Below, one piece after another: positions 6,818 to 46,352 of a stretch of 64,000 bases of DNA. A model generated the notes under the pieces. It was not told the origin of the DNA. It made no database searches and saw only the letters and a list, made by a program, of their open reading frames with translations. How positions within the stretch are numbered: the first letter of the stretch is position 1; every line of letters begins with the position of its first letter. Location of the stretch: positions 30,791 through 94,790 of the forward strand of contig JAADGG010000041.1 of assembly GCA_013152485.1 (NCBI GenBank), read 5' to 3'. Source of the DNA: Nitrospirota bacterium (lineage in GTDB: Bacteria > Nitrospirota > Thermodesulfovibrionia > Thermodesulfovibrionales > JdFR-85). The position numbers and the translations under genes were made by a program.

Positions 6818-7354
6818 TCAGTCATCGTCGAGGTCCGAACCGTAAATCATCTCGGCGATTATCCTCTGGGCGAGGCCCCTGACCGCCTTCTCCGTCGCAC
6901 GCTCTCTCTGAGACTGTATGGCCTGAATGTCGTCTGCAGAGACGAACGTCTCCATGAACTCGGAGCCTATGTCCTTGATTTCCCGCACACTTCCGTCAGG
7001 GAATCCGAGCCTGACGTCGGCTGCTATGCGGATGATGTATTCGACGGAGAGATCGTCTTTTATGCTGAGCGTATCGAGCCTGTAGTCCGTCAGGACCGCT
7101 GACAGCACGTATGCGGATCTGTCAGCGAGAGCTATACCGTTTCTGAGCAGTTCTTCCGCCATGACGTTTATGAAAAGGTCCTGCAGCCCGGGCTCGAAGG
7201 TCTGGTTCTCGACCACGCCGATCCTGACGGATCCGAACGGCAGCACGGATGTCTTATGCACCCTGTAGCCGCACGAGACCAGAAGCGAACACTGCAGTAA
7301 GAACAACACAAACGTGAGGTTGCTCAACAGCTTCTTACGGTTTACGAAACTCAT
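6818..7354 (-). CDS. lptE: LPS-assembly lipoprotein LptE-like
   Basis: Lipobox LLVSCGY follows a signal peptide, and the gene sits upstream of holA. I chose the internal ATG at 7354, which forms an ATGA overlap with the stop of the upstream gene. Confidence 0.6.
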   Translation of the reverse strand: MSFVNRKKLLSNLTFVLFLLQCSLLVSCGYRVHKTSVLPFGSVRIGVVENQTFEPGLQDLFINVMAEELLRNGIALADRSAYVLSAVLTDYRLDTLSIKDDLSVEYIIRIAADVRLGFPDGSVREIKDIGSEFMETFVSADDIQAIQSQRERATEKAVRGLAQRIIAEMIYGSDLDDD

Positions 7355-7602
7355 CTCCTCCAGTTCCTGATGTGTCTTACGCCGGAGTTGAACCTCTCGA
7401 GCAGTTTCTTGGCCCATACGAACTCACCGGCCAGTATTGCAAGCGAGAGGGGAATCACAACCGTTGCAGGCCCCGGAAGCACGATCAGCACGATGCCGAC
7501 CAGCAACAGGGTAAAGCCTATGACGATCTTCGTGACCCTCTTGGCCTGGGGAAGGGTCTTGACAGTCAGCCTGCTGATGAATAATTTAAGCGCCGTATTC
7601 AT
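7351..7602 (-). CDS. PGPGW-domain small membrane protein
   Basis: Two TM helices with LIVLPGPATVVIPLSLAILAGEFVWAKK (PGPGW-type motif). Confidence 0.6.
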   Translation of the reverse strand: MNTALKLFISRLTVKTLPQAKRVTKIVIGFTLLLVGIVLIVLPGPATVVIPLSLAILAGEFVWAKKLLERFNSGVRHIRNWRR

Positions 7603-7686: not shown

Positions 7687-8706
7687 ATGCCGTGCAGGAC
7701 AAAAGTGACCCTTTCATGCAATGACGGATCAATGAAGACATACAAGCCGATCTCCTTGAGACAGGTCAGGAGATACTCCCTGGAGGACAGAAAGAGCAAG
7801 GTAGAGGCGTCGAAGGCGGCCGGGACGTTCCCGGAGGGGGGCACATTCAAGGACTTCATCGACTCCCTGCCGGACTTTCTCGCCGCCAGGGACTTCAGGG
7901 AAGTGGTCGGCTCGATAGTGAGGGCGCGGCTGAATGACAGACCGGTTGTTCTCGCCATGGGGGCACACCCGATAAAGGTGGGGCTCTCCCCGTTGATCAT
8001 AGACCTTATACAGAAGGGCATAATCACGGCGATTGCCTCAAACGGGGCCGCCGTAATCCATGACTTCGAACTCTCCTACAGGGGAGAGACCTCCGAGGAT
8101 GTCGCATCGGAGCTCGAGGATGGGACGTTCGGGATGGCAAAGGAGACGGCGGTCATGATAAACAGGGCCATAAGGAAAGGGGCCGGGGAAGGCCTCGGCC
8201 TCGGGAGCGCGGTCGGCAGGATGATACTGAACGGACGGGGGTTTCACAACAGGAGGATGAGCATATTTGCCGAGGCGTACAGGCATTCGGTCCCGGTCAC
8301 CGTCCATGTAGCCTTGGGCACGGACATAATACACATGCACCCCGAGGCGGACGGTGAGGCCATAGGCAAGGCGAGTCTCCTCGATTTCAGGACCCTTGCA
8401 TCCGTGGTCGCCGACCTCGAGGGAGGTGTTTTCATAAACCTCGGCTCCGCTGTAATAATGCCGGAGGTCTTCCTGAAGGCGCTTACACTGGCAAGGAACC
8501 TCGGTCACGGGGTAAAGGAGATAACCACGGTAACCATGGACTTCAACAGGCATTACAGGCCCATGGAGAACGTCGTACGTCGGCCTGCCGCCTCGGGAGG
8601 CCGGGGTTACTATATCACGGGACACCACGAGATAATGTTTCCGCTCCTTGCAGGGGCGGTGAAGGAAGAGCTGTCCACGAAACAATCGGGCCTGAGAGGG
8701 ACGTAA
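7687..8706 (+). CDS. Deoxyhypusine synthase-like family protein
   Basis: VVLAMGAHPIKVGLSPLIIDLIQKGIITAIASNGAAVIHDFE resembles the DHS fold core, though the match is weak. An extended -10 (TGCTAAAAT, 7671-7679) sits 7 nt before the ATG. An alternative start is at 7732. Confidence 0.4.
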   Translation: MPCRTKVTLSCNDGSMKTYKPISLRQVRRYSLEDRKSKVEASKAAGTFPEGGTFKDFIDSLPDFLAARDFREVVGSIVRARLNDRPVVLAMGAHPIKVGLSPLIIDLIQKGIITAIASNGAAVIHDFELSYRGETSEDVASELEDGTFGMAKETAVMINRAIRKGAGEGLGLGSAVGRMILNGRGFHNRRMSIFAEAYRHSVPVTVHVALGTDIIHMHPEADGEAIGKASLLDFRTLASVVADLEGGVFINLGSAVIMPEVFLKALTLARNLGHGVKEITTVTMDFNRHYRPMENVVRRPAASGGRGYYITGHHEIMFPLLAGAVKEELSTKQSGLRGT

Positions 8707-9905
8707 TGGACATAAAGAGACTCCTGGAAGAATCCTCGCGGTATCTGATGAACACCTACAACAGATACCCCCTGATATTGAGAAAGGGGCGGGGGACCAA
8801 GGTATACAGCATAGACGGCAAGGAGTATCTCGACTTCGTCGGAGGCATAGCCGTCAACATACTCGGGCATTGCCATCCCAAGGTGGTGGTGGCGATACAG
8901 AAGCAGGCACAGAGACTCCTGCACGTCTCCAACCTCTATCAGATAGAGCCACAGATAAAGCTCGCGAAACTCCTCGTGGAAAACTCCTTTGCCGACAAGG
9001 TCTTCTTCTGCAACTCGGGGGCCGAGGCAAACGAGGGAGCGATCAAGCTCGCCAGGAAATATGCAAAGGAGCGCCATGGAGAAGAGAAGTTCGAGATAAT
9101 CACTGCGCTCAACTCGTTCCATGGACGGACACTGGCCACCCTGACGGCCACCGGACAGGAGAAGTTTCACAAGGGATTCGAGCCCCTCGTCCCGGGCTTC
9201 AGACATGTCCCGTTCAACGACATCGAAGCGTTGAGAGCCGCAGTGAACGACAGGACCTGTGCCGTAATGCTCGAGCCGATACAGGGTGAAGGCGGTGTGG
9301 TGGTCCCCTCTCACGAGTACATGAAAGGGGTACGGGAACTCTGTGATGAAAGGGGCATACTGCTGATACTCGACGAGGTCCAGACCGGGGTCGGGAGGAC
9401 CGGCAGGCTCTTCGCCTATGAGCACTTCGGCATAGAGCCCGACATAATGACACTCGCAAAGGGGCTCGGTGGCGGAGTGCCCATAGGCGCGCTGCTCGCC
9501 AGGGAAGATGTGGCCGGCGCGTTCGTCCCCGGCAGCCACGCCTCCACCTTCGGAGGCAACCCGCTCACAACCCAGGCTGCGATAGCCACTGTCGAGACGG
9601 TCCTCGAAGACGGCATCCTCCTCGAGGAGTGCAGAAGGCTGGGAAGATATTTCATGAGGCGGCTGGCGGGTCTTAAAGATTCGTTTTCGAGTATAATAGT
9701 GGATATAAGAGGAATGGGCCTCATGATCGGGATGCAACTGACCAGGGACTGCGCCCCGATAGTGAAGGCCTGCATGGAAAAAGGCGTGCTGGTCAACTGT
9801 ACCGCCAACAACACTTTGAGGTTCACACCACCGCTCATAGTGACGGAGAAGGAGATAGACACGGTGACGGATATAGTCGAAGACATACTCGCGAGGCTGT
9901 CATGA
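8706..9905 (+). CDS. argD: Acetylornithine aminotransferase
   Basis: Class-III aminotransferase motifs are present: FCNSGAEANE, FHGRT, LILDEVQTGVGRTG, TFGGNP. Confidence 0.9.
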   Translation: MDIKRLLEESSRYLMNTYNRYPLILRKGRGTKVYSIDGKEYLDFVGGIAVNILGHCHPKVVVAIQKQAQRLLHVSNLYQIEPQIKLAKLLVENSFADKVFFCNSGAEANEGAIKLARKYAKERHGEEKFEIITALNSFHGRTLATLTATGQEKFHKGFEPLVPGFRHVPFNDIEALRAAVNDRTCAVMLEPIQGEGGVVVPSHEYMKGVRELCDERGILLILDEVQTGVGRTGRLFAYEHFGIEPDIMTLAKGLGGGVPIGALLAREDVAGAFVPGSHASTFGGNPLTTQAAIATVETVLEDGILLEECRRLGRYFMRRLAGLKDSFSSIIVDIRGMGLMIGMQLTRDCAPIVKACMEKGVLVNCTANNTLRFTPPLIVTEKEIDTVTDIVEDILARLS

Positions 9906-10804
9906 AGAGAGACTTCCTCAGGCTCTGGGACTTCACCCGGGAAGAGATCGGCGATATCATCGAGAGGGCCATCGCCCTGAAGGCAGGGACCGATGCAAAC
10001 CAGTGCCCGCTGATAGGCAAGAGCCTGTGGCTGCTGTTCGAGAAACCCTCGACGAGGACACGGATATCGTTCGAGGTCGGCATCTACCAGCTCGGTGGAC
10101 AGTCCATATACATGAAGCCCTCGGAGATTCAGATCGGCAGGGGAGAAAGCACCGCCGACACTGCAAGGGTGCTGTCGAGGTATCTCGACGGCATCATCAT
10201 AAGGACCTTCGAGCACTCGAAACTCGAGGAGTTCGCCGCAAATTCCGACATTCCGGTCATAAACGGCCTGAGCGACATGCATCATCCCTGCCAGGTACTG
10301 GCCGACCTCATGACCATCAAGGAGAAGAAAGGCAGGATCGAGGGTGTAAAGGTCGCCTACATAGGAGACGGCAACAACGTGGCCAACTCCCTGATGGAGG
10401 CGGCAGGCAGGATGGGACTGTCGCTGAACATAGCCTGCCCCGAAGGTTACGAACCGGACATAAACATACTCGAAGAGGCAAGGACCGGAAAGGGGGAGAT
10501 CATCATCCTGCGGGACCCCAAGGAGGCGGCAGGCAGGGCTGACATCATCTACACCGACGTATGGGTGAGCATGGGACAGGAGGACTCCGCTGAGATGAAG
10601 AGGAAGAAGTTCATCTCCTACCAGGTCAACTCCTCGCTGCTCGCCTGCGCAAAGCAGGACGTCATCGTCATGCACTGTCTTCCCGCACACAGGGGCGAGG
10701 AGATAACCGATGATGTCATAGACGGCCCGCACAGCGTGGTCTTCGACCAGGCTGAAAACAGGCTTCACACACAGAAAGCACTTCTCGAGATGTTGATACG
10801 GTGA
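9902..10804 (+). CDS. argF: Ornithine carbamoyltransferase
   Basis: STRTR, HPCQVLAD and HCLPAHRGEE motifs are present. ATGA overlap with argD. Confidence 0.92.
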   Translation: MKRDFLRLWDFTREEIGDIIERAIALKAGTDANQCPLIGKSLWLLFEKPSTRTRISFEVGIYQLGGQSIYMKPSEIQIGRGESTADTARVLSRYLDGIIIRTFEHSKLEEFAANSDIPVINGLSDMHHPCQVLADLMTIKEKKGRIEGVKVAYIGDGNNVANSLMEAAGRMGLSLNIACPEGYEPDINILEEARTGKGEIIILRDPKEAAGRADIIYTDVWVSMGQEDSAEMKRKKFISYQVNSSLLACAKQDVIVMHCLPAHRGEEITDDVIDGPHSVVFDQAENRLHTQKALLEMLIR

Positions 10805-11010
10805 TGCAGGATCCTGCGGGCTGAAGGACGTTTCTTCATCGCCGGATTCCGACGAGACGGAACGGCTATGCCGGACGGTCGTCTGAGCGGAAAGGGACTT
10901 CAACCTGGAGTCGAGCATTCCAGACAGCCGGATACACCGAAAAGGACTGTTTTTTTGGAAGTCTTCCATCTGCAGAGATTCACGGCTGAGCCGAACAACC
11001 AGTTTGCCTT

Positions 11011-12666
11011 GTGAGCGAGCCACTTTACATAATACCACTTGGCGGCGTCGAAGAGGTGGGAGGGTTGAACATGACCGTCCTGCAATACGGCGACGACATG
11101 ATAGTCATCGACGCAGGTCTGATGTTTCCCGAGGACGAGATGCTCGGCATCGACTTCGTAATCCCGGACTTCACCTACCTGCTCGAAAACCGAGACAAGC
11201 TCAGGGCGATAATCATAACACACGGACACGAAGACCACACAGGGGCCCTACCCTTTCTCATCAGGGAACTCGACGGAACCGTACCAGTATACGGCACGCC
11301 GCTTACACTCGGCCTTCTCAGGAACAAGCTCTCCGAACACAGGATCTCAACGCCGTTTCATACCGTAAAACCGAGGGACACGGTGAGGCTCGGGGAATTC
11401 ACGGTTGAGTTCGTCCGTGTAACGCACAGCATCGTCGACGGCGTGGGACTCGGAATCAGCACGCCGTATGGGCTGGTCGTCCATACGGGCGACTTCAAGA
11501 TCGACCCGACCCCTGTAGACGGTGAACTGCTCGACTTCCACAAGTTCTCCGAATACGGCGACAGGGGAACACTGCTGCTGATGTCCGACAGCACGAACGC
11601 AGAGAAAGGAGGTTTCACGTACTCTGAAAAAGAGGTCAGGAGGGTCTTCGAGGACATCTTCTCCTCCGCACCCGGCAGGTTGATAATAGCCACATTCGCC
11701 TCCAACATACACAGAATCCAGCAGGTGATCGATGTGGCGGTGAAGTACGGAAGGAAGGTGGCCCTGTGCGGCAGAAGCATCGTATCGAACGCACAGATAG
11801 CCCTCGACCTCGGCTACCTGAGGCTTCCGGAAAAGACATGGCTGAACCTCGAAGAGATACACACGCGGCCTGACAGGGAAGTGACGATAATCACGACCGG
11901 CAGTCAGGGAGAACCGATGAGTGTTCTGTCGAGGATAGCAACCGGGGAACACAAGACCATAAAGATCGGCCCCGGAGACACCGTCGTGCTCTCCGCAAAG
12001 GTGATACCGGGCAACGAACGCTCGATCGGCAAGATAATAAATCATCTGTTCCACAGGGGGGCGAACGTGATCTACGAAAAGGTCTCCGAGGTCCACGTCT
12101 CGGGTCATGCGTCAAAGGAGGAACTGAAGCTGATGCTCAATCTCGTGAGGCCGACGTACTTCATGCCCGTACACGGCGAGTACAGACACCTCGTCTATCA
12201 CTCAAAGCTCGCCGAGAAACTGAACATTCCCAAGGAAAACATATTCATAATGCAGGATGGCGACATCCTGGAGATCAACGGCGAGGGGGCCAGGAAGAAC
12301 GGAAAGGTCCACTCCGGCAGGATATTCATCGACGGCAAAGGAGACATTGAAGATGTCGTCCTGAGGGACAGGTGGCGACTCGCCCATGACGGCATAGTGC
12401 TCGTCATCCTGTCCATGGAGAAACCGTCGGGCCGCATAACCTCGGGCCCCGACATAGTATCGAGGGGCTTCATTTTCGAGGAGGCCTCGCCGGAGGTGAT
12501 CGCCGAGGCGAAAAAAGTGGTCGCCGACACCATAACAGGGCTCGATGCCGAACTGCTCCAGGACCTCACGCTCATGAAGGCCAGGATCAGGAACACTCTC
12601 AAGAAGCATATATACAAGACCATGAATCGCAGACCCATGATAGTGCCGATCATATTTGAAATATAG
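11011..12666 (+). CDS. rnj: Ribonuclease J
   Basis: The metallo-beta-lactamase motif ITHGHEDHTGALP and the beta-CASP body are present, and the length of about 550 aa fits. GTG start. Confidence 0.9.
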   Translation: MSEPLYIIPLGGVEEVGGLNMTVLQYGDDMIVIDAGLMFPEDEMLGIDFVIPDFTYLLENRDKLRAIIITHGHEDHTGALPFLIRELDGTVPVYGTPLTLGLLRNKLSEHRISTPFHTVKPRDTVRLGEFTVEFVRVTHSIVDGVGLGISTPYGLVVHTGDFKIDPTPVDGELLDFHKFSEYGDRGTLLLMSDSTNAEKGGFTYSEKEVRRVFEDIFSSAPGRLIIATFASNIHRIQQVIDVAVKYGRKVALCGRSIVSNAQIALDLGYLRLPEKTWLNLEEIHTRPDREVTIITTGSQGEPMSVLSRIATGEHKTIKIGPGDTVVLSAKVIPGNERSIGKIINHLFHRGANVIYEKVSEVHVSGHASKEELKLMLNLVRPTYFMPVHGEYRHLVYHSKLAEKLNIPKENIFIMQDGDILEINGEGARKNGKVHSGRIFIDGKGDIEDVVLRDRWRLAHDGIVLVILSMEKPSGRITSGPDIVSRGFIFEEASPEVIAEAKKVVADTITGLDAELLQDLTLMKARIRNTLKKHIYKTMNRRPMIVPIIFEI

Positions 12667-12683
12667 GACTGATATTCTATAAT
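12655..12683 (+). promoter_or_regulatory. Sigma70-like promoter of the cytochrome operon
   Basis: TTTGAA (12655-12660), a 17-nt spacer, then TATAAT (12678-12683), 27 nt upstream of the ATG at 12711. The -10 lies inside the perfect palindrome TATAATATTATA (12678-12689). Confidence 0.45.
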
Positions 12684-12710
12684 ATTATAAATTTCAACAA
12701 AGGGGTCGGA

Positions 12711-13721
12711 ATGAAACCGAGGTTGCTGCTGATAACAGCCCTCCTGCTGGGGTTGAGCATCGTGTACGCGTGCACTGAGCTGAAGAGGTCCAAGCCAATC
12801 CTGCCGCTGAACGAGTATGAGAGGATGATAGCCGGACGTCTCGATGCCGACTATGTCGGAACCGAGACCTGCCTGGCGGCATGTCATGCCCACGACGCGA
12901 TAAAGGCCGCCTTCGACGCAAGCACAATGGGGACACAGCTGAGGAGGGAATCCGGGCTACCTCTCGTCGACTGCGAATCATGCCACGGCCCCGGGAGCCT
13001 GGCGATCAAGGGGATAACCCGGGAGCTCGTCGAGGAAAACAGCAGGAAAGGCATAAAGACGGAATGCAACTACGAGACCCTGATCGACATAAAGAACCTG
13101 CCCGCGATCGCAAAGAGCCTCATCTGTCTCAAGTGCCACACCGGCAACGCCACGTTCAACCTTCACGAATGGAACGCAGGCGTTCATGCGGTAAACGACG
13201 TCTCATGCTCAGACTGTCACGACATACACGAAGGAGCCGACCTGAAGGTGAAACCGAAGGATACGGCAGCCATGTGCCTCGACTGTCATCAGGAGATCAC
13301 GGCCTACTACAGGATGCCGAGTCACCATCCAGTGACCGAGGGAAAGGTCTACTGCACCGACTGCCACAATCCCCACGGCACGTCGACGGAGAAACTCCTC
13401 AGAAAGGCCAGTGTCAAGGAGACGTGCACCAGGTGTCACGGGGAGAAAGAAGGCCCCTTCCTCTACGAGCATGCCGATCTGACGGATGACTGCTTGAACT
13501 GCCACATGCCGCACGGCTCCCCGAACAACAATCTGCTCACCTTGAGGGAACCCTTTCTCTGCCTGCAGTGCCATCAGAGCCACAGGATAAACACCGCCAC
13601 CGGCGAACCGAAGACCACCGCATTGAAAGGGTTTTTCTTCACCAGGTGCACCAACTGCCACAGCCAGATACACGGCACCGACATACCATCGCCCGGGGGC
13701 AAGGGAAGGTTCATCCAATGA
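12711..13721 (+). CDS. Decahaem c-type cytochrome, DmsE/MtrA family-like
   Basis: Ten CxxCH motifs: CLAACH, CESCH, CLKCH, CSDCH, CLDCH, CTDCH, CTRCH, CLNCH, CLQCH, CTNCH. The N-terminal signal ends IVYAC. The C-terminal block GPFLYEH..CLNCHMPHGSPNNNLL..CLQCH..FTRCTNCHSQIHG is typical of MtrA/DmsE. Confidence 0.85.
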   Translation: MKPRLLLITALLLGLSIVYACTELKRSKPILPLNEYERMIAGRLDADYVGTETCLAACHAHDAIKAAFDASTMGTQLRRESGLPLVDCESCHGPGSLAIKGITRELVEENSRKGIKTECNYETLIDIKNLPAIAKSLICLKCHTGNATFNLHEWNAGVHAVNDVSCSDCHDIHEGADLKVKPKDTAAMCLDCHQEITAYYRMPSHHPVTEGKVYCTDCHNPHGTSTEKLLRKASVKETCTRCHGEKEGPFLYEHADLTDDCLNCHMPHGSPNNNLLTLREPFLCLQCHQSHRINTATGEPKTTALKGFFFTRCTNCHSQIHGTDIPSPGGKGRFIQ

Positions 13722-15679
13722 CCAGGAGCCGGACTGCAACAGGAAGAGGAAAGGCACGCTGCGGACTCATCGTGCTGCTCGTGATAGTGGTCCTTACCGC
13801 CCCTGCACGCGAGATACTGGCAGAGGACGGGAGCAGGCAGGCATACAGTCCCGGCTACTCCCTGGGAGCCGGATACAACTGGACCGGACTCGACGGCTCC
13901 AGAAGGGTCATAGAGTACAGCTCAGGGGTCAAGTCACCAGTCCTCGGCGCGGACATCGAGGTCTACCCCCTGCCCCACAGGCTGTATCTCGATCTCTCAA
14001 CCCGTGAAAGAGACGACCTCTACCTCGACACGGGATATGCATACAAGGAGGTCCTCCTGTCGAGATTCATTGCTCGAGGACTCACCCACAACCTCGACCA
14101 TTACGTACTGCCGGCCTCAGACCCTGATGAGGCCACGAGGAAATACAGGGACCGAGACACGAACGCTTCCTACCAGACGGACGTCACGACAACCGACCTG
14201 TTTCTCAGACTGAAGACCCCGGACTATCCTTTCCACCTCTTCGGCAGGTATTTCGGTTATGACAAGGAGGGCACCGTTCAACAGCGGTTCCTCGTGGGAT
14301 ACTTCAACGACATGACAGTAACTTCCCGGAGCAGGCGGATCGACTTCAGGACCGAGGAGCTGACCATAGGGTCGAACGGCCACTTCGGACCTCTGGAGGT
14401 GGAATACACCCATGGCGAGAAGAGTTTCGTTCCAGCCGGCCCCAAGGTTCTCGAAGACCTGTATCCCGCAACCGCTCAAAGACCAGAGGACGTATATCCA
14501 CACAACCTGGTGCCCGAAACGCGCACGTCGTCGGACTATATCAGGGCGCATTCATCCTACACGGGACGCATAACGGCCTCGGCATCGTTCGGCAGCATCA
14601 GGCAATCAAACCAGGACAGCTCCGTGGAGAGGACGATTATCGTCGGCGCCGGACAGCTGGCGTTCATCCCCATGGACGCACTCTCCTTCTTCCTCAGATT
14701 CCGTTACAGGGATCTCGATGAGGAGGGCCCCGGGACCACCGTGCTCAGGGGACAGAGCAATGAACTGGCATACAAGGTCCGCCCGTCCCTCGACACAAGA
14801 CAGAGGGAGATCTCACTGTGCATCAGGACGCGCCCATCGAGGGGCGTAAACCTTGCGGGCAGCTACTCCGTCGGCAGAAAAGACCTCTCGGACACGGAAG
14901 AGTGGTTGCTGGCCGACAGGAACACAACGGTCAACACCTTTGAGTTCAAGGCTTACGGGACGGTGTTGAAGGGAGCCAGGTTCAGGACGACCTACAAATA
15001 CACCGACCTCAAAAACCCGCTCTACAACACCGACCCGGACACCTCTCACGAACTCGATCTCTACGCAAGCTACACACTGACCCCCGGGGTCTTCACCGTT
15101 CTGACCTACAAGCTCAGGAAGGAGAGGCGCGACAACCTCAGGTTCATCAACACGCGGACGGAAACGCCTACCGAAACCGGACAGAGAGACAACACCTTCC
15201 ACAACGTACTGGGTCTCCTCGTGCTGACTCCATGGGAAAGAACATCCGTCACCGTGTCATGCGGATACTACAAGAACGGCCTGCGACAGACTCTGCTTTA
15301 CTCCACATTCCTCGGTGACGGCTCCTCTGAACCCGGGGAACCGATTGCAGAAGACGGCGTACCCTACAGTGACGAATCCACATCCTACTCTGTCGGGATA
15401 ACACACAGGTTCAACGACAGAACCGACGTCTCTGCAGACATGGGACAGACATTCTCGAAAGGCAAGTTCCGGACCGAGAATACGCTGGCCGAAAGCATAT
15501 CATCCTTCTCCATGCTGAGGGTGACGGAGACGGCCCTGTCGATAAAGGGCAGGCACGAGATGAACAACGGATTCGGCATCGAAACGGTTCTCGGTCTGAG
15601 AGACTACAACGACCGTACAGACGACCAGAACGACGGCAAATTCTATCAGGCCATGCTGATCCTGACAAAGAGGTGGTAA
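13718..15679 (+). CDS. Large outer-membrane beta-barrel, MtrB/PioB-like (cytochrome-associated porin)
   Basis: The start at the internal ATG 13718 overlaps the cytochrome stop (ATGA). It has a signal peptide (..LLVIVVLTAPAREILA), a 653-aa Tyr/Arg/Asp/Thr-rich sequence with alternating pattern, and a terminal ..LILTKRW aromatic end typical of OMPs. Confidence 0.6.
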   Translation: MTRSRTATGRGKARCGLIVLLVIVVLTAPAREILAEDGSRQAYSPGYSLGAGYNWTGLDGSRRVIEYSSGVKSPVLGADIEVYPLPHRLYLDLSTRERDDLYLDTGYAYKEVLLSRFIARGLTHNLDHYVLPASDPDEATRKYRDRDTNASYQTDVTTTDLFLRLKTPDYPFHLFGRYFGYDKEGTVQQRFLVGYFNDMTVTSRSRRIDFRTEELTIGSNGHFGPLEVEYTHGEKSFVPAGPKVLEDLYPATAQRPEDVYPHNLVPETRTSSDYIRAHSSYTGRITASASFGSIRQSNQDSSVERTIIVGAGQLAFIPMDALSFFLRFRYRDLDEEGPGTTVLRGQSNELAYKVRPSLDTRQREISLCIRTRPSRGVNLAGSYSVGRKDLSDTEEWLLADRNTTVNTFEFKAYGTVLKGARFRTTYKYTDLKNPLYNTDPDTSHELDLYASYTLTPGVFTVLTYKLRKERRDNLRFINTRTETPTETGQRDNTFHNVLGLLVLTPWERTSVTVSCGYYKNGLRQTLLYSTFLGDGSSEPGEPIAEDGVPYSDESTSYSVGITHRFNDRTDVSADMGQTFSKGKFRTENTLAESISSFSMLRVTETALSIKGRHEMNNGFGIETVLGLRDYNDRTDDQNDGKFYQAMLILTKRW

Positions 15680-15704
15680 AATAAAGAGGCTGTTAATATC
15701 AATC

Positions 15705-16610
15705 ATGGTCCTTCTCTCTCTTCTTGCAGGGACAGTCCATGCTGCAACAAAGGACAAGATTGTCGCGGGCGTGGTGTTCTCGGGCGACCTGCCCTTTTAC
15801 AGGGAGATACACGAGGAACTCGTCAGGGAACTGCTCGAGAAGGGATACGACAAGCGGGTCCGCTTCATCATCCAGAGACCCAACCCGGATGCACTCGCAT
15901 GGAGCAACGCCATCAGAAAGATGATCGCCTACGACGCCTCCCTCATAATAGTTTACGGCTCGGGAGCCGCACGTGCGGCGCTCTACGAGTCCTCCTCGGT
16001 TCCGATCATTTATGCCGCGGTGTATGAACCTGAGAGATCCGGCATAACGGGCAAGAACATCAGGGGAGTCGGGTACAAGGTCCCCGTATCCAGCATAATC
16101 CGCTACCTCAGGAAGACCGGTGAGATAAAGAGGATAGGAGTCCTGTACTCGGATTCCGAACCGAGTACCAGGACCCAGTACATGGATGTAAAGAACGTCT
16201 GCAAGAATCTCTCCATAGATGTGGTGAAGATACCGATAAAGAGGCCGAGAGAGATAGGTCAGAGACTGAGACTCATGTCCTATGACAGTCTCCTGCTTAC
16301 GAGCAGCGCACTGATAAACAAGTACTTCCCCGACTACATCCTCGTCTTCAGGAAGAAACCGGTTCCTCTGGCCACGATAATAAAGGGACTCGAAGAATAC
16401 TCCGTCATCACGCTCTCCACCGACCCGCGCAAGCAGGGGGCCGTACTGGCCAGGAACCTCATCAAGTTCATAAACAACGGCGAGATAGGCAGCATAGAGA
16501 ACACCGCGCTCCTCAAGAACTCCCTCACGTTCAACATGCGTCTTGCGATAGACCTCGGGCTGGACATACCGGTGGAGCTCCTTACGGAGTCTGACAGGGT
16601 GATCAAGTAA
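15705..16610 (+). CDS. Periplasmic substrate-binding protein (ABC_sub_bind / PF04392-like), orphan
   Basis: A short signal peptide is followed by KIVAGVVFSGDLPFYREIHEELVRELLEKGY..LIIVYGSGAARAA, which matches the PF04392 layout. There is no permease or ATPase nearby. Confidence 0.7.
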   Translation: MVLLSLLAGTVHAATKDKIVAGVVFSGDLPFYREIHEELVRELLEKGYDKRVRFIIQRPNPDALAWSNAIRKMIAYDASLIIVYGSGAARAALYESSSVPIIYAAVYEPERSGITGKNIRGVGYKVPVSSIIRYLRKTGEIKRIGVLYSDSEPSTRTQYMDVKNVCKNLSIDVVKIPIKRPREIGQRLRLMSYDSLLLTSSALINKYFPDYILVFRKKPVPLATIIKGLEEYSVITLSTDPRKQGAVLARNLIKFINNGEIGSIENTALLKNSLTFNMRLAIDLGLDIPVELLTESDRVIK

Positions 16611-17500
16611 TGAAGAAGGTCCTTGCCATAGCCGTGCTGAGCTGCTTCGTCCTCCTCTCTCTATCGACGAGGACGGATGCGGACGATATGGAGCTGCTGA
16701 TAGGGCTCATCCCCGAGCAGAACATCTTCAAGCAGATAGAGAGGTACAAACCCCTCGCCGCCTACCTGTCCGAGAGGACGGGGATAAGGGTCAGGCTGAC
16801 GATACTGAGCCGCTACGGCGACATCATAGACAGGTTCGTCCAAAGGGGTCTCGACGGCGCGTTCTTCGGAGACCTGACAGGGGCCCTCGCCATAGAGAAA
16901 CTCGACATAGAGCCGCTTGTACGTCCGGTGAACATGAACGGTTCGACCTACTCGTACGGCTACATAATCGTCAGGAAAGACAGCGGGATAAGGAGTGTGG
17001 CCGACATGAAGGGCAAGGTGTTGGCCTTTGTGGACAGGGCGACCGTGACAGGTTACCTGTTTCCACTGTCCTACTTCAGGTCTCACGGGGTGGCGAACCT
17101 CGAGGGATACTTCTCGGAATACTACTTTACGGGCAGTCACGATTCCTCTGTCTATGCCGTGCTCGATGGAAGGGCGGACATCGGCTGCATAAAGAACACC
17201 ATATTCAACAATCTGGTCTCCAGGGATCCGACGATCAAGGAAGAGATACGGATCATTGCGAAATCCCCCCTGATGCCCGAGAGCACACTCTGCCTGAGGA
17301 GGGACCTTCCGGAAGGCATCAAGAAGATGATAAAGGAAGTGCTCTTGACCATGGACAGGGACCGGGAGGGCCGCAGGATCCTCGCAAAGCTGCACGCGCA
17401 GAGGTTCATCGAGGCCTCGGTCGAAGACTTCAAGCCCGTTTACGAGATGCTGAAGACACTCGGAGAGGATATAGAAACATACCAGTACAGGGTCAGATGA
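16610..17500 (+). CDS. PhnD-like periplasmic binding protein (PF12974-like), orphan
   Basis: A signal peptide is followed by LLIGLIPEQNIFKQIERYKPLAAYLSERTGIRVRL. One-nt TAATG overlap with the upstream gene. Confidence 0.7.
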   Translation: MKKVLAIAVLSCFVLLSLSTRTDADDMELLIGLIPEQNIFKQIERYKPLAAYLSERTGIRVRLTILSRYGDIIDRFVQRGLDGAFFGDLTGALAIEKLDIEPLVRPVNMNGSTYSYGYIIVRKDSGIRSVADMKGKVLAFVDRATVTGYLFPLSYFRSHGVANLEGYFSEYYFTGSHDSSVYAVLDGRADIGCIKNTIFNNLVSRDPTIKEEIRIIAKSPLMPESTLCLRRDLPEGIKKMIKEVLLTMDRDREGRRILAKLHAQRFIEASVEDFKPVYEMLKTLGEDIETYQYRVR

Positions 17501-17528
17501 AGGAATCCCGAACGCCGGAGCTCCACAG

Positions 17529-19505
17529 ATGCGGAAAAAAATAACGCAATACCTCTTGACCATCTTCCTGCTCTTCGCCCTGAGCGGTGGAATAGCGATA
17601 ACGGCCCTGTCCCAGGTCACAAAGGATCTGAACAGCCTGATAACCCTCCACAAGGTAGAGATCATTCGTCAGAACCTCGTCATCAACCTCCAGACCGTAC
17701 AGACCAACCTTTACACGATAGGGACGTCCTTCGGTCCCGACCTGGACGTGATCGTCGACAACGTAAACTCCCTCGACAAGGCGATAACGAGCTGCACGGG
17801 CTGCCACCACAGCGCGGCACTCACAAAGAAACTGACGCGGCTGAAAAAATTCACCGAAAAGTACAAGGAGGCGCTCAGCGCCTTCATAACCACGACCGCC
17901 AATCCCGAACGCGTGAAGAGGCTCCAGATGGCAACGGCGGAAATAGGTGAGATGTTGCTGCAGAGCACACGCGAGATGGCCTTCATCACGAATCAGAAAC
18001 TCAAGGAAAAGTCTGCAACGGCACTGCGCGAGGTCGAACGCATCAAGTGGATACTGCTTGCAAGCCTGTTGGGCATAATGCTCACGGGCTGCATCATTGC
18101 GGTAAACCTCACGAGCGAGATACTCAAGCCCATAAGAGAGCTCTCCGATGCTGCGAGAGAGGTTGCCTCGGGCAATCTCGGCTACACGATAGACACCTCC
18201 GACACCACGGAGTTCGGGCATCTCGCAAGGGTGTTCAACGAGATGAGCCTGTCGCTGAAAGAGAGTCACGAGCGCAGCATGAAGTACATGATGAGACTGA
18301 GCGGACTGTACAGGCTCACCCTCTCCTTCCACATGGTGACCAACGAGCAGGACATCATCAGGGAACTGGTCTTCGGGGTGGCCGAGATCATAAAGGCCGA
18401 GAAGGTGCTCGTCTTCCTGTACAACAAGGAGAAAGACCGGTATTTCTCGGCCTTCCCGGCATACGGATTCACAGACGGTGACATAGAGAACTGGTCCTAC
18501 GAGCCTTCCTTCATAAACAGCATCTATCTCAAAAGCAACAAGAGGTCCATGATAATCCATCCGGAAGACCGCATGGCGAAACAGCTCCTCTTCCGGGCGA
18601 CCGGCGTGCGTAACCTCGCCGTGATATGGCTGAAGCAGAAAGGCGTGCTCACCGGCTTTCTGCTGAGCATAAACAAGGAGGGAGAAGGGTTTACGGAGGA
18701 AGACATCCGGCTGCTCAGCATAATAGCAAACAACTTCTCCGTTGCGATGGACAACGCACAGCTGTACAGGGACCTCCACACCCAGATGCAGAAACTCAAG
18801 GACACACAGGAACAGCTTGTCCAGGCGGCAAAGCTCGCTGCCATAGGCGAGCTCGCAGCAAACATCGCCCACGAGATCAACAATCCCCTGACGAGCGTAC
18901 TCGGCTATGCCGAACTGATGAGGGAGGAGGAGGACATAGAGAGCATAATGAGGGATCTCGAGATCATAGAGTCCGAGTCGCTGAGGGCAAGGGATATCGT
19001 CCAGCAGCTGCTCGAGTTCTCGAGGAAGTGGCCTCTCAAGATAGGCAAGGTGGACGTAAACAGGCTGCTCAAGGACGTCATGGATCTCGTCTCCATCAAC
19101 ATCAAGAACTCCGGGATCGACATAACGACGGATTTTTCGGACCTGCCCGAGATAAACGCTGATGCAAACCAGCTCAAACAGGTCTTCCTCAACCTCATAA
19201 ACAATGCCATACAGGCAATGCCCGAAGGCGGCACGCTCTCGCTCAGGACGGCAAAGGTGGACAACTCGGTGATCATAGAAGTCTCCGACACGGGCACCGG
19301 CATTCCGGACAACGTAGCACAGAAGATATTCGAACCCTTCTTCACGACCAAAAGAGACAAGGGGACCGGGCTGGGGCTTCCGATAAGCTACAGGATCATA
19401 AAAAAGCACGGCGGGAAGATCGAGGTGAAAAGCAGGGTGGAGAGAGGCACCACGTTCAGGGTGATACTGCCGGTCAGGATGTCTTCTTTACAAATATCTC
19501 CTTAG
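17529..19505 (+). CDS. Sensor histidine kinase (TM - helical periplasmic domain with CxxCH - TM - HAMP - GAF - HisKA - HATPase)
   Basis: The H-box is AHEINNPLTSVLGYAELM. N, G1 and G2 boxes are present (LINNAIQAM, DTGTGI, GTGLGL). CTGCHH lies at aa 89-94 between two TM segments. No receiver domain. Confidence 0.85.
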   Translation: MRKKITQYLLTIFLLFALSGGIAITALSQVTKDLNSLITLHKVEIIRQNLVINLQTVQTNLYTIGTSFGPDLDVIVDNVNSLDKAITSCTGCHHSAALTKKLTRLKKFTEKYKEALSAFITTTANPERVKRLQMATAEIGEMLLQSTREMAFITNQKLKEKSATALREVERIKWILLASLLGIMLTGCIIAVNLTSEILKPIRELSDAAREVASGNLGYTIDTSDTTEFGHLARVFNEMSLSLKESHERSMKYMMRLSGLYRLTLSFHMVTNEQDIIRELVFGVAEIIKAEKVLVFLYNKEKDRYFSAFPAYGFTDGDIENWSYEPSFINSIYLKSNKRSMIIHPEDRMAKQLLFRATGVRNLAVIWLKQKGVLTGFLLSINKEGEGFTEEDIRLLSIIANNFSVAMDNAQLYRDLHTQMQKLKDTQEQLVQAAKLAAIGELAANIAHEINNPLTSVLGYAELMREEEDIESIMRDLEIIESESLRARDIVQQLLEFSRKWPLKIGKVDVNRLLKDVMDLVSINIKNSGIDITTDFSDLPEINADANQLKQVFLNLINNAIQAMPEGGTLSLRTAKVDNSVIIEVSDTGTGIPDNVAQKIFEPFFTTKRDKGTGLGLPISYRIIKKHGGKIEVKSRVERGTTFRVILPVRMSSLQISP

Positions 19506-20133
19506 CTATGTCTATATCGATCGCCACGGTGGTCTCGTCGACCTGGACCACAACCGAAGGCCATTTCTGGAGGAGCTTCAGGGTGGAGCCTGCATTTATG
19601 CCTATGGAGTTCAGTCTGTTCAGTCGTGACGGGTCGGACGGCACTATATAGACTATCCTGCCCTTTTGCCCCACCTCGAAGTCTGCAAGCCTCACGACCA
19701 GCGGCTCCACATCCACCTTGTACTTCTTGCAGCACTCTCCCCTCGGAATCGGCTTGTCATGAGGACACGTGGGGGGATGGCCGAGGAAGGTACAGACGCT
19801 GTCGGTCAGTTCCTTGCTCAGTATATGCTCCATCTTGCAGGCATCCTCGTGTATGTACTCCTCCTTCATCTCGAAAACGTCTGCAAAGAGCCTTTCGGCA
19901 AGCCTGTGTCTGCGCACCACGCCCCTGGCTATCTCCTTGCCCTCGGGGGTGAACTTCACGTCTTCGCCGTCGACGGTTATGAGCCCCCTCTTCTGCAGCT
20001 CGGCTATGGTCTTCTCTATGCCCTCATCGTCGGAGCAGCCCTTGAGGCGTTTCAGTCCGCCCTTCTCCTCTTCTTCCAGGACCCAAAGGAGCTCCAGCGC
20101 CTCTTCCAGCCGTTCCTGATCCATCGTCTCCAT
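19474..20133 (-). CDS. DtxR/MntR-family metal-dependent repressor with C-terminal FeoA (SH3-like) domain
   Basis: VRRHRLAERLF and metal-site residues (HEDACKMEH) are present, with a C-terminal FeoA-like LADFEVGQKGRIVYI. The 3' end overlaps the kinase 3' end by 32 nt (convergent). Confidence 0.85.
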   Translation of the reverse strand: METMDQERLEEALELLWVLEEEEKGGLKRLKGCSDDEGIEKTIAELQKRGLITVDGEDVKFTPEGKEIARGVVRRHRLAERLFADVFEMKEEYIHEDACKMEHILSKELTDSVCTFLGHPPTCPHDKPIPRGECCKKYKVDVEPLVVRLADFEVGQKGRIVYIVPSDPSRLNRLNSIGINAGSTLKLLQKWPSVVVQVDETTVAIDIDIAKEIFVKKTS

Positions 20134-45170: not shown

Positions 45171-46352
45171 TCACACATCATAACGCCTCGTGCCTCCGTA
45201 ATCCCGGTGAGCATCGTAAATCTCCCTGAACATCCTGGCCGAGTCCTTGAAAGCCTCGAGCACATGCGGGTCGAAATGTTCGGGCCTGGTCCTCGTATCA
45301 CCGACGGTCAGTATGTTTACGACACTCTCGTGATCCAGCACGGGCTTGTAGGGCCGCCTGCTCCTCAGTGCATCATACTGGTCGACGATGTTCATTATCC
45401 TCCCGGATACCGGAATCTCTTCCCCCATCAGACCGTTCGGATAGCCGCCGCCGCTCCACCTTTCGTGATGGGTGAGGGCTATCTCCTCGGCCATCTTCAG
45501 ATAGGGGGACTTCGAGTTGCTCAGGATCTTTGCTCCTATGACGGTATGGGTCTTGACCAACTCCCATTCCTCGGGCGTGAGCCCCTCCTGCTTGAGAAGG
45601 ACACGGTCTGGAACACCCACCTTGCCGATGTCGTGCATCGGCGAGGCGTAGTAGATGGTCTCGATATATTCCTTGCTCATGCCGAGAGCAGATGCGAGCT
45701 CCTTTGCGTACAGACTGATCCTCTTTATGTGGGCGCCGCTGTCTTCGTCCTTGTACTCAGAGGCGAGGGTAAGGCGGTAAACCGTCTCCACATAGCCCGT
45801 CTTGATCCTCCTGTAGACCTTCTCAAGCCTCTCGAAGGCCCACTCGAGGGCTTTTATCCTCGTCGCCACCTGTTCCTCGAGCACCTGTTTGTGCTCTCTG
45901 AGAAAGTCGCGGCACTCCTTGAGCTTCAGCAGGTTCTTCACCCTGAGCGTAAACTCGATTGAGTCGAACGGCTTTACGAGAAAGTCGTCAACCCCCTTTG
46001 CAATGCCTGCCCGTCGTTCCAACGGGGAATCACAGACTGAAAGGACAACGATCGGAATGTGTTCGGTCAGCTCACTGGACTTCAGCCTCTCCACGATCTC
46101 GAATCCGTTCATGCCCCGCATGGTTACATTCATGAGGATAAGGTCCGGCAGGTACTGGAGAGTATGTTCAAACGTCTCATAGGCATCCTTCGCCACTATG
46201 GTTTCATAACCGTGGTCTTCACAGAATGCCTTCAAGAGCTTCACGTCCTTTTCATCATCGTCAACAATGAGGACCCTGAATACCTTCTCCCTATGGTTCA
46301 ATCCTGTTTTCACTATCCCCCCCTCAAAGGATCTCTTAGAAAGTTCACGCAC
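45171..46352 (-). CDS. Response regulator with HD-GYP phosphodiesterase domain (RpfG family)
   Basis: The receiver has [19 protein letters not shown]. The output domain has HDIGK and [14 protein letters not shown]. Confidence 0.9.

Follow-up and report, generated by a model that had tools for sequence, protein, structure and literature searches.

A conserved Nitrospirota gene cluster places a candidate haem-motif sensor kinase and two solute-binding proteins beside an MtrAB-type cytochrome-barrel pair

Gene content of the locus

We analysed a 64,000-nt stretch of DNA (hereafter the window) from a Nitrospirota bacterium (GCA_013152485.1, contig JAADGG010000041.1, positions 30,791-94,790, forward strand), which comes from a hydrothermal Nitrospirae metagenome-assembled genome (MAG) and holds a cluster of five genes in which a cytochrome-barrel pair is followed by two solute-binding proteins (SBPs) and a sensor histidine kinase. 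All five lie on the + strand: the cytochrome gene (12711-13721), the barrel open reading frame (ORF; 13568-15679, with ATG 13718 as its likely start), the genes for the PF04392-type protein SBP1 (15705-16610) and the PhnD/PtxB-type protein SBP2 (16610-17500), and the kinase gene (17529-19505). They follow one another with spacings of -4, 25, -1 (TAATG) and 28 nt. Similarly tight spacing was seen in the relatives L001, L005 and L008, and the 4-nt overlap of cytochrome and barrel genes is present in L005 and L008 as well. The genes, coordinates, spacings and domains listed by a first-pass annotation of this DNA were borne out by the ORF list, Pfam and NCBIfam. More than 25 independent contigs show the identical gene order, so the five-gene arrangement is not a chance grouping.

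Cytochrome-barrel pair and its SBP-fold companion

The cytochrome belongs to the MtrA/DmsE family (TIGR03508, 252 bits against a cut-off of 192) and matches the MtrA chain 6r2q_A with an E-value of 2e-41. It carries ten haem motifs, nine CXXCH and one CX3CH, the latter (CLAACH) being its first haem site. The lipobox cysteine that follows the signal peptide is kept in all orthologues (..VYAC in the window; ..WGC, ..SGC, ..NGC, ..VGC and ..GGC in the relatives L015, L018, L020, L021 and L022). The decahaem cytochrome is probably a lipoprotein, a status which to our knowledge has not been reported for Shewanella MtrA. The MtrA-like gene alone among the ORFs of the window encodes at least two CXXCH motifs, and by the same count no MtrC-type extracellular decahaem cytochrome is encoded there with the pair.

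The barrel gene (13718-15679, +) overlaps the cytochrome gene by 4 nt (ATGA) and encodes a protein with a signal peptide that we describe as a divergent MtrB/PioB-like outer-membrane beta-barrel. A scan of species-representative genomes with a barrel profile, annotated with hidden Markov models (HMMs) built from the orthologues, returned 14 loci, and the cytochrome and barrel genes are adjacent in every one. The matches of the window barrel itself are weak (Porin_4, OMP_b-brl). Its relationship to MtrB/PioB is drawn from orthologues 43-47% identical to it, because two of the five match PF11854 (MtrB_PioB), with a best E-value of 3e-11. Cytochrome and barrel together are predicted to form an MtrAB-type outer-membrane electron conduit without MtrC. 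As in MtrAB, MtoAB and PioAB (PMC7198977, PMC8805035), a decahaem MtrA/DmsE-family gene is translationally coupled to a large beta-barrel gene, and MtoAB and PioAB likewise have no MtrC. Unlike those systems, the present one has a conserved cytochrome lipobox, a divergent barrel and a PF04392-fold protein as constant third gene; SBP or kinase accessory genes are not mentioned in the Mtr-cluster surveys PMC7198977 and PMC8805035.

SBP1, the product of this third gene, scores 46.4 bits for PF04392 (cut-off 25.9), and its AlphaFold2 (AF2) model (pLDDT 90.6) shows a class I solute-binding fold. The model superposes on 3lft and 3lkv with TM-scores of 0.87-0.91 and a root-mean-square deviation of 1.8-1.9 Å at 17-20% identity; these PF04392 proteins bind aromatic amino acids. 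SBP1 thus has the same fold as the PF04392 SBPs of ABC (ATP-binding cassette) transporters (TrpX, 3lft, 3lkv, CD0873) and lies above the Pfam gathering score, but unlike them it falls far below the TrpX equivalog (NF041285, 60 bits against a cut-off of 390), has no ABC permease or ATPase nearby and always lies beside the cytochrome-barrel pair. The family is small (15 clusters). Within a set of six, the orthologues are 36-68% identical to the window SBP1; SBP1 orthologues carry signal peptides, and motifs such as AW(S/K)NAxRK are retained even in L021 and L022. The annotated ATG of the window gene at 15705 gives a 13-residue signal peptide with no charged N-region, and an alternative in-frame ATA at 15681, after the Shine-Dalgarno-like GAGGTGG, would begin KRLLISIMVLL...; gene callers place the start differently in close relatives, and the orthologue signal peptides are full-length.

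SBP1 adjoins the barrel in every SBP1-bearing locus examined that extends upstream. A "Proteobacteria" MAG (L021) and a "Deltaproteobacteria" MAG (L022) hold cytochrome, barrel and SBP1 without the kinase, and in a Nitrospiraceae MAG (L018) the trio is followed by a different signalling protein (11821-15236), with a transmembrane segment (TM), a 120-residue periplasmic domain, a second TM, and PAS-PAS-GAF-HD-GYP domains, and without CXXCH. As these three loci show, SBP1 belongs with the conduit: it travels with the cytochrome-barrel pair and not with the kinase. The arrangement of L018 also means that SBP1 may pair with other signalling proteins. Our inference is that the periplasmic partner of SBP1 is the conduit and not an ABC importer. 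In L022, SBP1 is followed by the gene of a 197-residue secreted coiled-coil protein (6969-7562).

SBP2 and its relation to sensory binding proteins

SBP2 scores 211 bits for PF12974 and 173 bits for TIGR01098 (cut-off 112), and among proteins of solved structure it is closest to PtxB (1.5e-30), followed by phosphonate SBPs, ArrX (8e-20) and AioX (1e-19). In alignment with AioX, residues Y69, Y118, T145/T147 and H177 of SBP2 correspond to AioX Tyr88, Tyr131, Ser161/Ser163 and His192, while the arsenite-binding Cys106 is replaced by Gly87 and Asp210 by Lys195. AioX-type arsenite sensing by SBP2 was rejected on account of the replaced cysteine. Among 71 SBP2-type proteins encoded beside genes for the haem-motif sensor described below, P35, E36, N38, Y69, T145, H177, K195, S219 and P223 are conserved in at least 85%, and the pocket residues E36, N38, Y69, T145, H177 and K195 are near-invariant. 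This conservation points to a coherent subfamily with a shared ligand class, for which an oxyanion is plausible. The SBP1-linked subset of SBP2 proteins deviates at pocket positions 118, 146 and 147.

AioX and ArrX are sensor SBPs that act through the kinases AioS and ArrS; among their regulators, AioR and ArxR are AtoC-type and ArrR is CitB-like (PMC5908839). PhnD-like domains also sense tetrathionate in TtrS (PMC5408782). With ArrX and AioX among its closest solved relatives, and with a close relative of SBP2 encoded directly upstream of a kinase of this kind in 78 of the 101 listed loci that could be scored (see below), SBP2 is very probably a sensory co-receptor of the kinase.

A kinase sensor domain with a haem-attachment motif

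The kinase consists of a TM, a predicted periplasmic four-helix bundle with CxxCHH, a second TM, and HAMP, GAF, HisKA and HATPase_c domains, and its translation shows the H, N, G1 and G2 boxes. The periplasmic sensor domain spans approximately residues 28-172 (17610-18044, +), and the codons of C89-T-G-C92-H93-H94 at 17793-17810 (+) make up a c-type haem attachment motif. CxxCHH is invariant in six kinase orthologues, and the kinase probably carries a covalent c-haem in the periplasm. The first-pass annotation had suggested ligand or redox sensing at this locus and had overlooked CxxCHH, which gives any redox link its concrete basis.

The breadth of the sensor family became apparent through an exhaustive phmmer search with kinase residues 1-200 (E <= 1e-3), which returned 253 clusters at 50% identity; word-indexed searches gave little (3 hits for the kinase N-terminus and 21, mostly short proteins, for the sensor profile). 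CXXCH stands at the aligned position in 148 of 149 sensor representatives listed, the exception being a 92-residue fragment. C89, C92, H93 and H94 are invariant across the family, and H41, R47, L50 and Q58 are at least 90% conserved. When the kinase was scanned, no Pfam or NCBIfam model covered the sensor domain, and residues 1-195 had no Pfam match. The 53 members scanned carry HAMP (52), HisKA/HATPase_c (32), PAS (up to 25, depending on the PAS model), REC (13), GGDEF (9) and EAL (7) domains. Long-read-type contigs (L023, L024, L025) split the barrel, kinase and regulator into two or three ORFs, probably by frameshift errors, and the short database proteins with sensor and HAMP only are to be read with such splitting in mind.

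The AF2 model of kinase residues 1-250 (pLDDT 84.8) is all-helical, with helices at 2-62, 72-90, 96-121, 126-213 and 228-249 and the haem motif where bundle helix 2 turns into bundle helix 3. Residue counting along the antiparallel helices would put H41 and M150 level with the motif, and one of the two is likely the distal haem ligand. The top Foldseek matches of the model are sensor-TM-HAMP fragments of NarQ (5jgp, E 4e-5) at 16-17% identity, in keeping with the TM, four-helix bundle, TM, HAMP topology of NarX and NarQ; these are followed by the helical sensor of Adeh_2942 and by the LytS sensor in complex with XylFII (5xsd, 5xsj; TMt ~0.8). In XylFII-LytS, TorT-TorS and LuxP-LuxQ, a free periplasmic SBP docks on the periplasmic domain of the kinase. 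Those systems differ from the present one in their SBP families and ligands, and we know of no haem in the sensor domain of LytS, TorS or LuxQ.

Covalent haem in extracytoplasmic sensors is represented by the sCache_heme domains (GSU0582, GSU0935, Tll0287/DUF3365; PMC12889525), which share with the kinase sensor family a strictly conserved CXXCH, kinase or cyclase outputs, and enrichment in Nitrospirota and Desulfobacterota. Unlike them, the kinase sensor is a predicted NarQ-type four-helix bundle with a dedicated SBP partner. Membership in Cache_heme was rejected, the model being all-helical and not of the Cache alpha/beta fold, with no PF11845 match; given its NarQ-like predicted fold, the domain is distinct from the Cache_heme haem-c sensors. 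Haem-motif kinases have been noted in Geobacter genomes (PMC8396549).

Conservation and gene linkage

The first-pass annotation had proposed a neighbourhood search for the SBP1-SBP2-kinase genes beside a cytochrome-barrel pair, and the arrangement proved to be conserved in relatives. Loci fetched with SBP1 show the same order wherever the contig is long enough, all with a convergent DtxR-like gene, while the downstream contexts of the window and of five distinct SBP1-fetched loci all differ. Seven of the 14 loci from the genome scan, all Nitrospirota, contain the complete five-gene set. Outside that group, a Desulfobulbaceae MAG (L020) encodes cytochrome, barrel, SBP1, SBP2 and a haem-sensor kinase (with CIECH at position 89) and no DtxR-like protein; L015 has the cytochrome-barrel pair alone. 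Throughout the Nitrospirota loci, argD-argF, often joined by rnj, immediately precedes the cluster on the same strand with short gaps (8706-12666 in the window; L001, L005, L009-L017). L023 retains the five genes though argD-argF-rnj lies on the other side and strand, and the metagenome contigs L058, L107, L109 and L140 keep the cluster without arg or rnj neighbours.

A scan of metagenome contigs with a degenerate DNA pattern of the conserved sensor residues gave at least 120 loci, and the sensor HMM confirmed 120 of 120; the counts that follow refer to the loci listed. An SBP2-type gene lies directly upstream of the sensor gene, ending at its start, in 78 of 101 loci with at least 600 nt of upstream sequence. 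A gene with REC and sigma-54 domains lies directly downstream in 36 of the 63 loci that have a complete sensor gene and at least 600 nt beyond it, and ORFs with at least four CXXCH occur in 32 of 120. SBP1 stands upstream of SBP2 in 16 of 120, and in these SBP1-bearing loci barrel and cytochrome follow further upstream whenever the contig reaches that far. Redundancy among the sensors is low (101 of 109 below 90% identity), and after clustering at 70%, SBP2 is present in 58 of 74 assessable clusters. Other neighbourhoods extend the theme: in L056 an NtrC-type regulator comes after barrel, SBP1, SBP2 and kinase; L025 carries five genes for multihaem cytochromes ahead of an SBP2-type gene, a haem-sensor kinase and an NtrC-type regulator; and L024 has kinase, regulator and a 961-residue MtrC/OmcA-like cytochrome. 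Where SBP2 is lacking, the kinase is often directly preceded by a very large multihaem cytochrome gene with 7-24 CXXCH (L040, L075, L081, L096, L099), which hints that a cytochrome may replace the SBP as periplasmic partner. In a neighbour-joining tree of 109 sensors, the SBP1-linked kinases are near-monophyletic (18 of 24 tips under their common ancestor), which suggests one or few fusions of two modules.

Transcription and neighbouring genes

A candidate sigma-70-like promoter, TTGAAA-16-TATAAT (12656-12683, +), agrees with the consensus at 11 of 12 positions and stops 28 nt short of the cytochrome ATG. It overlaps the end of the RNase J gene, and its -35 element lies inside the last rnj codons, an element shared by relatives with rnj upstream. 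This candidate is the sole + strand promoter-like site at the 5' edge of the cluster, the others lying upstream at the rnj start (11004) or being the same site read with another spacing. A consensus scan found no + strand promoter-like or terminator-like site within 12711-19505, a result which fits a single transcript. No palindromic operator was found near the cytochrome promoter or the dtxR start.

The DtxR-like gene (19474-20133, -) converges on the kinase gene, and the first-pass annotation had read a possible iron link from their 3' overlap. The overlap of 32 nt (19474-19505) was confirmed, and 3' overlaps of 4-77 nt are conserved in Nitrospirota-type loci; the iron link fared less well. 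The protein matches PF02742 (Fe_dep_repr_C, 98 bits) and PF04023 (FeoA, 52 bits), shows no match to the N-terminal winged-helix PF01325 at E <= 0.01, and stays far below the equivalog cut-offs of DtxR (91 bits, 290 required) and MntR (80 bits, 350 required). Since its DNA-binding domain is not recognised by Pfam, an iron link through DtxR is weak. The convergent gene was seen only in Nitrospirota-type loci, is missing in L020 and L023, and has an NtrC-type regulator in its place in L056; it is a lineage-specific neighbour.

The absence of ABC genes and of a response regulator from the vicinity, also noted in the first pass, holds in the window: a phmmer search with MalK as query found no ABC ATPase in the 64 kb, and the sole receiver domain is that of a REC-HD-GYP protein (45171-46352, -), 26 kb from the kinase. 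This response regulator combines REC with HD_5 (HD-GYP-type), and relatives of the kinase usually pair with an NtrC-type regulator instead. The remainder of the window consists of housekeeping genes; a 728-residue protein with RCC1-like and beta-propeller (SBBP) repeats at the window start (21-2207, +) is unrelated to the cluster.

Proposed function and alternative explanations

We favour, with moderate confidence, a reading in which the locus couples an MtrAB-type conduit and its dedicated SBP-fold partner to a three-component sensor, with SBP and haem as inputs and with its regulator gene at another site. In the first of these two modules, the lipoprotein decahaem MtrA homologue would sit inside the divergent MtrB/PioB-like barrel, and SBP1 would assist the conduit from the periplasmic side, perhaps as a carrier of a small ligand or docked on the cytochrome. 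The second module would have a layout like that of AioX-AioS-AioR, in which SBP2 would capture a solute from the periplasm and also dock onto the kinase. The four-helix-bundle sensor of the kinase would hold a covalent c-haem at C89/C92/H93, and this haem may either follow how reduced or oxidised the cytochromes of the periplasm are or serve as the binding site of a small ligand. Kinase activity would depend on two inputs together, SBP2 with its solute and the haem state, both relayed to the kinase core by way of HAMP and GAF. In relatives the customary partner is an NtrC-type sigma-54 activator, which in this lineage would be encoded elsewhere. The first-pass claim that the five genes form one unit thus stands as far as a conserved cluster of tight or overlapping genes in Nitrospirota, the Desulfobulbaceae MAG and metagenome contigs is concerned, and gives way to two modules in its composition.

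Several observations weigh against this two-module reading. The barrel of the window, which the first pass had linked to TIGR03509, matches neither that model (NCBIfam, E <= 0.01) nor PF11854 (Pfam, E <= 10), and searches of Protein Data Bank (PDB) sequences and profiles with it did not match MtrB. Haem attachment is read from the motif. No response regulator was found near the kinase in the window or in its Nitrospirota relatives, and a sigma-54 promoter signal is lacking, with -24/-12 sites not enriched (17 matches, 20 expected by chance). SBP1 could still signal to the kinase as well: in most cases a signalling gene of some kind comes after it, and the kinases linked to SBP1 group in a single clade. 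The fixed position behind argD-argF(-rnj) in Nitrospirota means that part of the conservation may be inherited gene order. All relatives are metagenomic, and the HMM that served to call SBP2 adjacency in the at least 120 metagenome loci listed was derived from six orthologues and applied to stop-to-stop ORFs.

The first-pass annotation had taken both SBPs for sensory co-receptors, and one alternative keeps this view: the five genes would be a single sensory-conduit machine, with sensing physically tied to the conduit. Linkage upholds the claim for SBP2 and goes against it for SBP1. The tight cluster with its overlapping genes, the conservation of the five-gene order across phyla, the near-monophyly of the SBP1-linked kinases, and the position of SBP1 in L018, again ahead of a membrane signalling protein with a periplasmic domain, would all suit a joint receptor. 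However, L021 and L022 have SBP1, cytochrome and barrel and no kinase, and with SBP1 in just 16 of the 120 listed sensor loci, most SBP2-kinase pairs do without it. We therefore regard a co-receptor role for both SBPs as unlikely.

A second alternative concerns the haem, which could be a sensor of a small ligand (NO, CO, sulfide) in the manner of Cache_heme, with the link to the conduit being regulatory only. Signalling-linked Cache_heme domains with covalent c-haem act as NO sensors (PMC12889525), and the additional invariant H94, together with the conserved H41 and M150, would permit a labile sixth ligand. The difference in fold and the neighbourhoods, which are rich in multihaem cytochromes rather than in denitrification genes, speak against it, and we consider it distinctly improbable.

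It is less probable still that the SBPs are ordinary transport components, with their ABC permease and ATPase genes elsewhere and the adjacency to the kinase incidental. Both families are named for ABC transport, SBP2 keeps the oxyanion-binding residues of PtxB/PhnD, and SBP genes often occur as orphans. Yet in none of the examined loci is the cluster flanked by ABC importer genes, and the ABC-2 genes of L007, on the far side of the DtxR gene, form an unrelated set of the export type; the frequent pairing of SBP2 with the haem-sensor kinase, that of SBP1 with the barrel in essentially all loci, and the sensor SBPs ArrX and AioX among the closest solved relatives of SBP2 (PMC5908839) argue in the same direction. 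That the arrangement is inherited synteny of functionally uncoupled conduit and sensory genes, as the conserved Nitrospirota block with its unrelated argD-argF(-rnj) might imply, is hardly credible, since the five genes stay together despite different flanks in L020, L023, L058, L107, L109 and L140, the downstream context differs in six Nitrospirota-type loci, and the translational-coupling overlaps are conserved.

Relation to known systems and significance

Kinases that depend on an SBP, haem-c sensor domains and MtrAB conduits have each been described before. The first-pass annotation knew of no described system of this composition; for the sensory part there is a precedent, as the combination of SBP, kinase and sigma-54 regulator has been described in AioXSR (PMC5908839). 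Like AioXSR, ArrXSR and ArxXSR (PMC5908839), which control respiratory enzymes, the locus encodes a secreted PhnD-family SBP without ABC partner beside a membrane histidine kinase, an AtoC/NtrC-type sigma-54 activator follows in most listed relatives of the kinase family, and SBP2 retains the common Tyr/Ser(Thr)/His oxyanion residues. It differs in having Gly and Lys at the positions of Cys106 and Asp210 in the window SBP2, a CxxCHH motif in the kinase sensor, no adjacent regulator, and multihaem cytochromes instead of molybdoenzymes as locus neighbours. In the literature searched, the coverage of which was incomplete and gives weak evidence of absence, we found no description of the four-helix-bundle haem-c sensor family, of its near-constant pairing with a PhnD-type SBP, or of a PF04392-fold protein as constant partner of an MtrAB branch.

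A broader proposal, which we advance tentatively as less secure than our reading of the locus itself, is that a large family of four-helix-bundle c-haem sensors, undescribed in the literature searched, forms with a PhnD-type SBP a dual-input (redox and solute) three-component system that controls extracellular electron transfer genes in sediment and vent bacteria, and that one clade has coupled this system to an MtrAB-type conduit that has an SBP-fold protein as its constant third component. How uncultured iron- and sulfur-cycling bacteria time the building of their outer-membrane conduits is largely unknown, and the locus offers a concrete candidate for the sensor: a kinase with a probable periplasmic c-haem and a partner SBP, found in hundreds of sediment and vent lineages beside multihaem cytochrome genes. 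The second element is an SBP-fold protein as the constant companion of one branch of MtrAB-type conduits, which, if the proposed role is true, would be a new accessory subunit of porin-cytochrome complexes. Should the sensory part also be true, it would offer a way to approach how extracellular electron transfer is regulated, and bioelectronic reporters would gain a new sensor domain.

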